Shown piece after piece: positions 4,258-27,824 of a DNA stretch of 32,000 nt (its first letter is position 1; each line of letters starts with the position of its first letter). The position numbers and the translations under genes are program-made. The notes below the pieces were generated by a model that was given only the letters and a program-made list of their open reading frames with translations, was not told the origin of the DNA and did not search any database. This stretch comes from Candidatus Thorarchaeota archaeon (lineage in GTDB: Archaea > Asgardarchaeota > Thorarchaeia > Thorarchaeales > Thorarchaeaceae). The stretch is from the NCBI GenBank assembly GCA_008080745.1, contig SHMX01000012.1, positions 1-32,000 on the forward strand. The letters run 5' to 3'.

Positions 4258-4338
4258 TTACTTTTCACCCAATATCATAATTATTGAATTGGTGGCAATA
4301 TTCACTATATTTAGGATTTATGAAATCGCACTTTGATC

Positions 4339-4357
4339 TAGTCACAAATTGTGACTA
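4339..4357. promoter_or_regulatory. Perfect inverted repeat TAGTCACA-AAT-TGTGACTA, candidate operator
   Basis: 8-bp arms with a 3-nt spacer, in the divergent intergenic region. Confidence 0.55.
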
Positions 4358-4387
4358 CATTGTGTGTCCTATAATCGTGGCTTTCCA

Positions 4388-4394
4388 TTATATA
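4388..4394 (+). promoter_or_regulatory. TATA box (TTATATA) for the small-ORF array
   Basis: About 33-39 nt upstream of ATG 4427. Confidence 0.55.
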
Positions 4395-4426
4395 CTAACT
4401 TGGAGTAGTATATGTTGTGAACAATC

Positions 4427-4531
4427 ATGGCGTTTGCAAAGAACTCCCACACCCGAACCGAGAAGAAGAACATCACCCGTAAGCCCCAGAGCACCAAGGC
4501 TCTGTCCTATGCTTACACCTATCGGAGGTAA
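4427..4531 (+). CDS. Small basic peptide A, 34 aa (MAFAKNSHTRTEKKNITRKPQSTKALSYAYTYRR)
   Basis: ATG..TAA below the track cutoff; TATA upstream; C/G-ending codon bias; paralogous to peptide B. Confidence 0.65.
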   Translation: MAFAKNSHTRTEKKNITRKPQSTKALSYAYTYRR

Positions 4532-4536
4532 TCTCA

Positions 4537-4620
4537 ATGGCAGTATCCAAGACCAAGATCATCAAGGACACCAAGTCCCCCTCAACCAAGGCTATCACCC
4601 ATGCTTACTTCAGGAGATAG
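4537..4620 (+). CDS. Small basic peptide B, 27 aa (MAVSKTKIIKDTKSPSTKAITHAYFRR)
   Basis: GGAGGT SD overlapping the end of peptide A; shared STKA-x-x-[YH]AY-..RR-stop motif. Confidence 0.65.
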   Translation: MAVSKTKIIKDTKSPSTKAITHAYFRR

Positions 4621-4625
4621 TCCAC

Positions 4626-4730
4626 ATGAACTCAAGCGTTCAAGATAAGCAATCGACTCCAAAACACCAAGACTCTAGCAAGAGTGGTGAACTCACGCCC
4701 CATGAAGTGCTCGCGTTGGAAGCAACCTGA
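4626..4730 (+). CDS. Possible third small ORF (MNSSVQDKQSTPKHQDSSKSGELTPHEVLALEAT) or frameshifted third repeat unit
   Basis: GGAG SD-like sequence before ATG 4626; ACCAAG-CT core present but in a different frame. Confidence 0.3.
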   Translation: MNSSVQDKQSTPKHQDSSKSGELTPHEVLALEAT

Positions 4731-4749
4731 GCACTCATTTTTCTTTTTA
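4702..4749 (+). terminator. Hairpin (AGTGCTC/GAGCACT, inner GTTG/CAAC) followed by a T-tract
   Basis: Stem 4706-4712/4729-4735 and TTTTTCTTTTT immediately after. Confidence 0.6.
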
Positions 4750-4763
4750 TGAAACAAAAAAAT

Positions 4764-5107
4764 GGCTCTGGTCCGAAGAGTAGCCCCGATTTTGTTCCGA
4801 ATTCAAGGTTACCCGATGAATTCCTTGCAACATCAAACTAAGCTTCCTACCCTAGGTTTCACGTCGACAGATCATCAACCTATTCTTGGAATTGCTACCT
4901 AGTGATGGACCGTTTCATCGAATCCGAATAGGTCCTCAACAGGTGGTCCTGTATCATAGTCATATCCTATCCGGGCGTGTCGTTTCTGTTTCCAGAGCAT
5001 GGTTCTCACCATTCAGCTCGCGCTGAACTAGCATCGACAAGTAGTCGGGATCTTCCTCAGCCTCTACGAGAAGTAGATACCGTCGGTTGCGCTTTCGCTC
5101 CAGAGCC
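4764..5107 (-). ncRNA. rnpB: Ribonuclease P RNA, about 344 nt
   Basis: Terminal P1 helix GGCUCUGG/CCAGAGCC; conserved regions GAGGAAGAUCCCG, GAAACAGAAAC, UGAAACGG and ACAAAAUCGGGGCUAC in the right order; T-tract after the 3' end. Confidence 0.93.
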
Positions 5108-22025: not shown

Positions 22026-22141
22026 TGGCGCCCAGGATGGGATTCGAACTCATGCCTCCAAAAGGAGAGCAGCTGCCTGATCGTAAAGCCACTAGGCAAT
22101 TCGATTCCAGGCTGCCGCCGTAACCGCTTGGCTACCTGGGC
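22026..22141 (-). tRNA. tRNA-Ser(GGA) with a 30-nt intron at 37/38 (22075-22104) and encoded CCA
   Basis: Acceptor GCCCAGG/CCTGGGC, G discriminator, anticodon stem GCAGC/GCTGC, long variable arm CTCC-TTTT-GGAG, TTCGAAT loop. Confidence 0.93.
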
Positions 22142-27074: not shown

Positions 27075-27824
27075 CTAAACAGATTCTGAATCAGACCAAA
27101 GACTATCAAAGTATGCTGATGCCATTGCTGCAAATACAGGGGCTGAAGCGTAAATGCCCAAGAACTCTTCTTGCTCATTACCAGCCAACATTATTAGAGT
27201 TTCACGTCTGTCAATAACTAGACCCGCTCCAAAAACACGTGACCGAGTACGTACTTCAAAATTCGAAGGAATGAGGTTCTTCATATCCGATGGGAGATTG
27301 GATGTGAGTAGCATAACCTTAGCTTTCACACTAAAGGCACGTTCTATTAGCTCAGAAATCTCTTCAGTGGGCATATCAAGACTGGGGAGAGATAGCAATA
27401 CCTCTTCCTTTGATACTTCTAACATCTCGATAGCTTTAGCAAGAATAGAATGTCTTCCGTGTAGAAGCCAAACATCTCGTGTGGTAGCAGGTGTTTCACG
27501 TTCAAATCTAGGTTGTAATTCTTCAACAACATGTTTGCTAGCCCGTTCTAATCGTTCCTCCCATTCCAATCTAACTAGGCGCATTACCTCAGTGGGGGAT
27601 TTTGCACGGTATTGTGTAGGTCTTCCTTTCCTAGTCTGGATAAACCCTTTTTCCCCAAGACGCCCTAGTACGTCATATATTCGCGAATAAGGAACCTGTG
27701 ATTTTGTGCTAGTATCCGAAGCGGACATTTGACCATGATCAACTAGTGCGAGATAAGCAGAGGTCTCGTATTCTGTGAGACCAATCTCTTTCAGTGCTTT
27801 GAGAGTAGCTTCGCTAATTGTCAA
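27075..27824 (-). CDS. TrmB-family transcriptional regulator
   Basis: LKEIGLTEYET..YLAL, SQVPYSRIYDVL, GRPTQYRA; C-terminal effector domain; TTG start. Confidence 0.92.
   Translation of the reverse strand: MTISEATLKALKEIGLTEYETSAYLALVDHGQMSASDTSTKSQVPYSRIYDVLGRLGEKGFIQTRKGRPTQYRAKSPTEVMRLVRLEWEERLERASKHVVEELQPRFERETPATTRDVWLLHGRHSILAKAIEMLEVSKEEVLLSLPSLDMPTEEISELIERAFSVKAKVMLLTSNLPSDMKNLIPSNFEVRTRSRVFGAGLVIDRRETLIMLAGNEQEEFLGIYASAPVFAAMASAYFDSLWSDSESV

Follow-up and report, generated by a model that had tools for sequence, protein, structure and literature searches.

A repeated three-gene micro-peptide cassette in Thorarchaeota and its association with a transporter of the major facilitator superfamily

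Layout of the cassette and coding evidence

We analysed a 32,000-nucleotide stretch of a Candidatus Thorarchaeota genome (contig SHMX01000012.1, positions 1 to 32,000; the window) and concentrated on a group of very small genes next to the RNase P RNA gene, rnpB. To our knowledge, micro-proteins of less than 40 amino acids (aa) are largely invisible to annotation; we know of very few that are understood in archaea and of none in Asgard archaea. A preliminary description, made from the letters alone, had proposed a tandem two-gene unit of paralogous basic peptides with complete expression signals. We found both open reading frames (ORFs) with the peptides exactly as quoted and with the shared DNA words ACCAAGGCT and ATGCTTAC in each. 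The unit does have its own promoter, Shine-Dalgarno sites and terminator, but it holds three genes rather than two. This third ORF (P3), a palindrome upstream, the multicopy nature of the unit and its link to a transporter of the major facilitator superfamily (MFS) were absent from that description. Positions 4341-4748 were shown to be one copy of a self-contained operon made up of a putative operator, a TATA promoter, the genes P1, P2 and P3, and a predicted terminator, arranged as follows:

4341-4355: palindromic operator GTCACAAATTGTGAC (extended form TAGTCAC-N5-GTGACTA, 4339-4357); all five copies begin aligning here
4358-4387 (+): promoter-proximal block with further GTGAC/GTGGC half-site-like repeats (..TTGTGTGTCC..CGTGGCTTTCC), from an upstream alignment of more than 10 genera
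4388-4395 (+): TATA box TTATATAC, nearly invariant across genera (at least 85% of rows)
4427-4531 (+): P1 (ORF1), 34 aa, basic, isoelectric point (pI) 10.7; Lys/Thr/Ser-rich N-terminal part, predicted to be disordered, and conserved C-terminal STKAL-x-YAY-x-Y-RR
4523-4529 (+): Shine-Dalgarno site of P2, CGGAGGT, inside the Arg-Arg codons ending P1
4537-4620 (+): P2 (ORF2), 27 aa, basic paralog of P1 ending STKAITHAYFRR
4612-4616 (+): Shine-Dalgarno site of P3, AGGAG, inside the Arg-Arg codons ending P2
4626-4730 (+): P3, 34 aa, acidic, pI 5.4, with its ATG at 4626; N-terminal part hypervariable between genera
4706-4735 (+): terminator hairpin, stem AGTGCTC/GAGCACT, inner stem GTTG/CAAC, GAAG loop; overlaps the last P3 codons and the stop
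4738-4748 (+): terminator T-tract, following the hairpin; the repeat unit stops here
4769-5102 (-): RNase P RNA (Rfam), convergent with the cassette

The expression signals of the preliminary description were all recovered, namely the TATA box (TTATATA, 4388-4394), the double use of the Arg-Arg codons as ribosome-binding sites, the hairpin with T-tract at the end of the unit and its convergence on rnpB. Both Shine-Dalgarno sites lie 7-9 nucleotides (nt) ahead of the next ATG, and the P2-to-P3 spacer is 5 nt, the same length as that between P1 and P2. P1 is predicted to be near-leaderless: from the usual archaeal TATA-to-start spacing, transcription would begin at about 4417 and leave a leader of some 10 nt without a Shine-Dalgarno site.

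The coding evidence comes from comparisons among five cassette copies of this genome (G000), copies of a congener (G001) and roughly 60 related loci from about 14 genera. Ratios of nonsynonymous to synonymous substitution rates (dN/dS, Nei-Gojobori method) were 0.25-0.42 for P1, 0.05-0.12 for P2 and 0.27-0.36 for P3, with 0.42, 0.12 and 0.27, respectively, for G000 versus G001, where copy pairs are not independent of each other. The other two frames of P2 gave 3.6 and 0.79. The P2 protein is identical across all five copies although several synonymous changes occur; a 6-nt indel within P1 preserves the frame in the five-copy alignment, and the sole 1-nt indel among the copies falls in the P1-P2 spacer. 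In the related loci the ORFs remain open although DNA identity falls to 65-75%. The frame-preserving conservation that had been looked to as a check on the genes was thus found, with ORFs open and dN/dS low in frame. All three frames were shown to be under purifying selection, as judged from dN/dS, whose direction is unambiguous, and P1, P2 and P3 are almost certainly real genes.

Codon usage is strongly skewed, as had been noticed for P1 and P2. The GC content at third codon positions was 0.76 for P1, 0.74 for P2 and 0.50 for P3, versus a mean of 0.35 (standard deviation 0.08) over 1547 long ORFs of G000, and the codons AAG, ACC, AAC, ATC and TAC were used almost exclusively. The bias in P1 and P2 supports the earlier suggestion of high expression, and the three genes are probably among the most strongly expressed of the cell.

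A TTG-started ORF of 148 aa (4284-4730, plus strand) runs in the P3 frame and overlaps all three genes. The 1-nt spacer indel breaks its frame in copies B and D, two of the five, and we therefore consider it spurious; gene callers may annotate it instead of the real small genes. We also reject a reading of 4621-4730 as a frameshifted third copy, because a distinct and conserved acidic peptide starts at the ATG at 4626.

Conservation, range and copies of the cassette

At every related locus examined the basic peptide gene or genes precede the acidic P3, usually in the order P1-P2-P3. Across genera, P1 measures 33-38 aa, starts with MAL(A/T)xN.. and ends in ..STxA(L/I)xxAYxYxR, while P2 measures 27-32 aa, starts with MALAK.. 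and ends in ..STxAIxxAYFRR; P2 scores 18.6 bits against the P1 profile. P3 varies from 33 to 45 aa, is acidic and has a nearly invariant end, (E/D)(V/I)LALEAT-stop; some P3 genes of relatives begin with GTG or TTG. In relatives, paired substitutions preserve the stem of the hairpin (GTACTC/GAGTAC and GTGCTT/AAGCAC). The ALEAT codons, which lie in its loop, are recoded synonymously, as in the relative G012; GCC CTT GAG GCA ACA is one such version. This combination of stem covariation and synonymous recoding indicates that both the RNA and the peptide are constrained at the 3' end. In some genera the cassette is larger and has three basic peptide genes ahead of P3 (loci L029 in G015 and L023 in G012), and G015 carries two cassettes in tandem, about 700 bp apart.

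The basic peptides (27-38 aa) start with Met, have no signal peptide, and have pI values of 8.1-11.8, mostly 9.4-11.8. Net charge was +1 to +8 for P1 and P2 and -1 to -10 for P3. AlphaFold2, run with family alignments, predicted a disordered chain with one C-terminal helix both for P1 (residues 24-32) and for P3 (residues 25-32), with confidence (pLDDT) near 80 in the helices and 55-60 elsewhere. In both peptides the predicted helix falls on the conserved motif, as would be expected of a short docking segment carried by a flexible tail. A prediction of the P1, P2 and P3 complex with alignments gave scores of 0.05 and 0.10, which count neither way.

A degenerate pattern of the P3 tail was searched in 86 genomes of the Thorarchaeota family of G000 and in 314 other Asgard genomes. 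It was found in 46 of the 86, covering 14 of 16 genera, and in none of the 314; the reversed pattern, used as control, gave no match. With one genome per species, the same pattern matched 46 archaeal records among 185,579 prokaryotic species, those with names being Ca. Thorarchaeota or Promethearchaeota and the rest uncultured archaeon, and one bacterial record, which is within chance expectation. Viral contigs gave three chance matches, none with the operator upstream; two have TGG (Trp) in place of the stop and one lacks a start codon. The P1 profile, run against 1.84 billion representative proteins, found 36 clusters, all of them stand-alone small proteins, and a search with a P3 alignment led by a 40-aa member showed that some P3 homologs have been deposited as "hypothetical protein" of Ca. 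Thorarchaeota. The peptides had no Pfam or NCBIfam match at E values up to 1, an ESM Atlas search with P1 returned no usable match, and a literature search found no description of such an operon. The earlier view of a duplicated small-protein family, probably highly expressed and without assignment to a known family, agrees with the codon bias and with these null results. As far as found, the cassette is confined to one Thorarchaeota family. A sequencing-run search located the window stretch in two DNA runs, both from one marine-sediment study, and listed no RNA runs.

Queried with positions 4380-4760, G000 gave five cassette copies and G001 four. In their alignment the five copies share a sharp upstream edge at the palindrome and a downstream end just past the hairpin, which sets the unit at about 400 bp. 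The window copy is preceded by genes for a DsrE-family protein and a Tsr3-type ribosome-biogenesis protein. The other four copies are found beside a P-type ATPase and membrane proteins, an FtsX-like permease, a PolX-like gene, and a ribosomal protein/elongation factor region (neighbours named from ORF translations read by eye). These settings are unrelated, so that the tie to RNA-processing genes proposed from the window copy does not hold and the setting is incidental. Each of the four G001 copies has a counterpart in G000 with common flanking genes, on both sides in two cases and on one side in the other two; the site between dsrE and rnpB is one of those matched, in agreement with the synteny expected there. 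The multicopy state is thus older than the split of the two species.

All nine cassettes group with those of their own genome (support 100/100), with identities of 90-98% within a genome and 81-85% between G000 and G001. Since cassettes at orthologous sites group by genome rather than by site, the copies are evidently homogenised by gene conversion, which argues for selection on the dosage of identical products. The cassette also shows that "empty" intergenic gaps in Asgard genomes can harbour core lineage-specific genes.

A shared operator and the linked transporter

The upstream layout is fixed across genera: the palindrome, a GTGAC(C) repeat, GTGGCTTT, TTATATAC, TTGTGAA about 25 nt further on, then the ATG. 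At up to two mismatches we found 11 operator sites in G000, comprising the five cassettes, one promoter site each for the bactofilin and the C4 MFS described below, and four 2-mismatch sites without the promoter block; a more degenerate site, before the paralogous MFS, comes in addition. The reversed operator pattern gave no match in five relatives. Within G000, the word GTGGCTTTCCATTATATAC is confined to the cassettes and the two MFS promoters. Outside the cassettes, operator and promoter block together occur in three places of this genome only:

contig C3, 523376-525044 (locus L033): operator and promoter between a winged-helix gene and a 411-aa bactofilin (PF04519)
contig C4: operator and promoter before a small ORF of 33 aa, with an MFS transporter gene after it
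contig C1: operator and promoter, in degenerate form, before a paralogous MFS

This arrangement recurs in G001, G002 and G007, in each of which the operator again stands before a bactofilin gene. In G000, G002 and G007 the gene for a winged-helix protein (HTH_45/Sso10a-like, 104 aa, 79-89% identical between genera) stops about 20 nt short of the bactofilin operator, and its product is a candidate regulator, as good a candidate as the TrmB-family proteins that G000 also encodes. The operator (TA)GTCAC-N5-GTGAC(TA) resembles the Thermococcales glycolytic motif TATCAC-N5-GTGATA in its 6-N5-6 palindromic build and its TCAC-N5-GTGA core. That motif is bound by TrmBL1/Tgr and mediates activation when it lies upstream of the TFB-recognition element and TATA box (PMC4706686). 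The operator differs from it at one base per half-site, the organisms are unrelated, and we take the likeness as a lead. The best TrmB-family helix-turn-helix match of G000 lies in the window itself, at 27594-27794 (minus strand; 84 bits), inside a 253-aa ORF.

The MFS family was found in 13 of 15 genomes of the Thorarchaeota family and in none of nine others (E ≤1e-40); PDB, NCBIfam and Atlas searches with it returned only the generic MFS_1. In at least four genera, P1-family small ORFs lie directly upstream of the ortholog of the C4 transporter, on the same strand, at 37-250 nt from the MFS gene:

G004 (g4): two P1-type ORFs upstream of MFS, 58 and 55 bits against the P1 profile; operator present
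G006 (g6): two P1-type ORFs upstream of MFS, 46 and 30 bits; operator present
G015 (g15): one P1-type ORF, 37 nt before the MFS start, 38 bits; operator not found in the 581 nt available
G002 (g2): one P1-type ORF upstream of MFS, 20 bits; operator present
G000, contig C4, about 63943-65715 (locus L034/L108): operator/promoter, a 33-aa Tyr/Arg-rich ORF (ending ..ENLYYEYRWGV) that has no score against the P1 profile, a spacer of about 220 nt, MFS

No T-run separates the P1-type ORFs from the MFS start in G004 and G006, and the MFS-linked loci contain only small ORFs and the MFS gene. In g1, g8 and g11 the operator and a divergent Tyr/Arg-rich small ORF take up the position before the MFS. None of the more distant MFS matches of the same search has a small ORF of the P1 profile upstream. 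Judged from this gene order, the P1-type peptides and this MFS belong together, and we regard the association as the strongest functional clue. The co-occurrence of MFS and cassette across the genomes of the family, which are kin, is suggestive. G003 and G005 (g3, g5) have neither the C4-type MFS at the above threshold nor a cassette match, while G011 and G014 have the MFS and no match to the P3 tail. G001 shares the C4 layout of G000; the C4 MFS probably starts with a codon other than ATG, and the spacer of about 220 nt before it could hold a regulatory RNA structure.

Possible functions of the peptides

Where peptide genes stand directly before a transporter gene and further copies occur on their own under the same promoter, the simplest reading is that the peptides are the substrate and the transporter is their exporter. 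In the mechanism that we favour, an operator-binding factor would switch on the whole set of cassettes, bactofilin and MFS, probably by activation, in view of its binding site ahead of the TATA box. The cell would then produce large amounts of P1 and P2, cationic peptides without leader or processing that each consist of a disordered tail and a short C-terminal docking helix. The co-regulated MFS would handle these peptides, most likely by export; the acidic P3 from the same mRNA, which has a conserved C-terminal helix of its own, may use it to pair with or neutralise them within the cell. We put this mechanism forward as a whole tentatively, as possible but short of probable. Rather doubtful is the broader proposal of a lineage-specific peptide system without a described archaeal counterpart, in which hydrophilic cationic micro-peptides and an acidic partner would be exported or otherwise deployed by an MFS under an operator that also controls a bactofilin. 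If true, the closest prokaryotic relatives of eukaryotes would possess a new kind of secreted-peptide system, with a part in communication, antagonism or the function of the envelope.

Several points weigh against the favoured mechanism. P1 and P2 are very hydrophilic (grand average of hydropathy -0.3 to -1.6) and carry no signal peptide; the leaderless exported peptides known to us are amphipathic or hydrophobic and leave through ATP-binding cassette (ABC) rather than MFS exporters. The stand-alone cassettes have no transporter beside them, the 33-aa small ORF before the MFS in G000 does not score against the P1 profile, and the MFS-linked units are without P3, whose role as a partner is conjecture. 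The genomes compared are kin and not independent, and one event in their ancestry may account for the transporter linkage. Finally, small basic peptides made in bulk would fit an intracellular nucleic-acid-binding role equally well.

That last role was developed into a specific alternative: P1 and P2 would be abundant intracellular binders of nucleic acid, nucleoid or ribosome, coating DNA or RNA with their Lys/Arg/Thr-rich tails under a particular condition, with P3 as chaperone or antagonist and with MFS and bactofilin merely in the same stress or nutrient regulon. We consider it somewhat unlikely. The high pI, strong hydrophilicity and conserved Tyr and Arg residues would suit such binders, as would the absence of a signal peptide or transmembrane segment, a codon bias typical of very high expression, multicopy genes kept alike by gene conversion as for dosage-driven genes, and basic and acidic products made in a fixed ratio from one mRNA. 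Such a role would not account for the MFS units of at least four genera, in which P1-type genes come as the first cistrons; Pfam, NCBIfam and ESM Atlas searches showed no similarity to chromatin, ribosomal or RNA-binding families, and the range is restricted to one family. The narrower idea of a ribosomal protein, raised in the preliminary description, fits poorly with five copies, with an occurrence in one family only (0/314 other Asgard genomes) and with the absence of a match to Pfam or NCBIfam models. A further reading takes the P1-type peptides either for modulators that bind the cytoplasmic face of the transporter, in the way that SgrT, MntS or archaeal sP36 act on theirs, or for leader peptides whose translation gates expression of the MFS gene, extra modulator being supplied in both versions by the stand-alone cassettes. 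The small ORFs share promoter and operator with the MFS, lie 37-250 nt before it on the same strand with no T-run in between in G004 and G006, and encode a conserved short C-terminal helix resembling a docking motif. Five codon-optimised cassettes nevertheless amount to ten basic peptide genes against three MFS genes, a large excess for 1:1 binding. Stand-alone cassettes end in terminators with no gene downstream and hence cannot be leaders, and the amino-acid motif is conserved far beyond the needs of most leader peptides. We rate a modulator or leader role as decidedly unlikely.

Tandem paralogous small ORFs with a short conserved motif, several dispersed copies in the manner of prochlorosin precursors, and a transporter within the regulon also recall precursors of ribosomally synthesised and post-translationally modified peptides, in which an enzyme encoded elsewhere would act on the C-terminal Tyr/Arg motif of P1 and P2 or on LALEAT of P3. 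Neither the genes next to the five copies nor the MFS-linked loci included a modifying enzyme, which disfavours the modified-peptide option of the preliminary description; the peptides have no Cys and match no precursor or leader family in Pfam or NCBIfam, the putative core is conserved rather than hypervariable, and copies within a genome are kept nearly identical. We rate this option as very unlikely. The basic and acidic products of one operon, the dispersed copies and the upstream palindrome could likewise be taken for a toxin-antitoxin-like module, with toxic P1 and P2, P3 as labile antidote, and copies retained by addiction. Such a module appears highly improbable: the operator is shared with the bactofilin and MFS genes and so is not a private autoregulatory site, the copies sit at conserved chromosomal positions and not in mobile contexts, MFS-linked P1 genes occur without P3, and no such family, type II systems included, was matched in Pfam or NCBIfam. 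Least probable of all is that the cassette is non-coding, a repeated structured RNA or a small non-autonomous mobile element with incidental ORFs. It does have sharp repeat boundaries, five copies, a GC content above that of its surroundings, a fold z-score of -2.25 and a 3' hairpin with compensatory changes. Set against these are purifying selection specific to the frames, indels that are in frame or between ORFs only, the synonymous recoding of ALEAT, and ORFs that stay open across genera at 65-75% DNA identity. The cassette also matches no Rfam family, neither terminal inverted repeats nor target-site duplications were seen in the flank alignment, and the copies keep their positions from one species to the other.

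We compared the proposed export system with known ones. The leaderless multi-peptide bacteriocin operons of Firmicutes (aureocin A70, enterocin L50, garvicin KS) similarly consist of tandem paralogous genes of about 30 codons, two to four in number, for cationic peptides without leader or signal peptide and without modification enzymes, and they have a dedicated transporter gene that is linked or co-regulated. Here an MFS gene follows P1-type genes in G004, G006, G015 and G002 and shares the promoter in G000. Leaderless bacteriocins are, however, amphipathic or hydrophobic, largely helical and often Trp-rich, whereas P1 and P2 are strongly hydrophilic with a helix of only 9 residues; their exporters are ABC transporters; and the acidic third peptide, the Asgard archaeal host and the lack of sequence similarity set the cassette apart. 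The psm-alpha operon of Staphylococcus aureus encodes phenol-soluble modulins exported by Pmt. It too contains tandem paralogous micro-peptide genes (four) missed by annotation, and its extreme expression from one regulator-bound promoter and its export without signal peptide by a dedicated transporter are features that may apply here. Unlike P1 and P2, the modulins are surfactant-like helices that are amphipathic over their full length, their exporter is of the ABC type and their operon is single-copy. Because P1 and P2 are hydrophilic and the transporter is an MFS, the cassette could at most be a new variant of the leaderless-bacteriocin and modulin logic, not a member of either group.

Two further comparisons follow. 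SgrT and MntS of E. coli, which act on PtsG and MntP, and sP36 of Methanosarcina mazei, which acts on AmtB1/GlnK1, are soluble small proteins (30-60 aa) co-regulated with, or encoded beside, a transporter; they have a short binding motif, which is putative in P1 and P2. They are single-copy and modestly expressed, in contrast to five codon-optimised three-gene cassettes. The alpha/beta-type small acid-soluble spore proteins of Bacillus and Clostridium (60-75 aa) form a multigene family of very abundant small proteins with dispersed copies under one shared switch, a description that would also suit the cassette if its products are as abundant as codon usage suggests. They are monocistronic members of a defined Pfam family and bind DNA as helix-turn-helix-like dimers, whereas P1-P3 form a three-gene operon and have no Pfam match.

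Whichever function applies, this is a selected family in up to five gene-converted copies, apparently wired into a small conserved regulon together with a lineage-specific transporter and a cytoskeletal protein. The defined operator, three synthesizable peptides and one transporter offer testable handles on Thorarchaeota physiology. Besides the RNase P RNA, the only Rfam match in the window was a tRNA at 22029-22141 (minus strand; 113 nt, 43 bits), which was not reported by ARAGORN and probably contains an intron.

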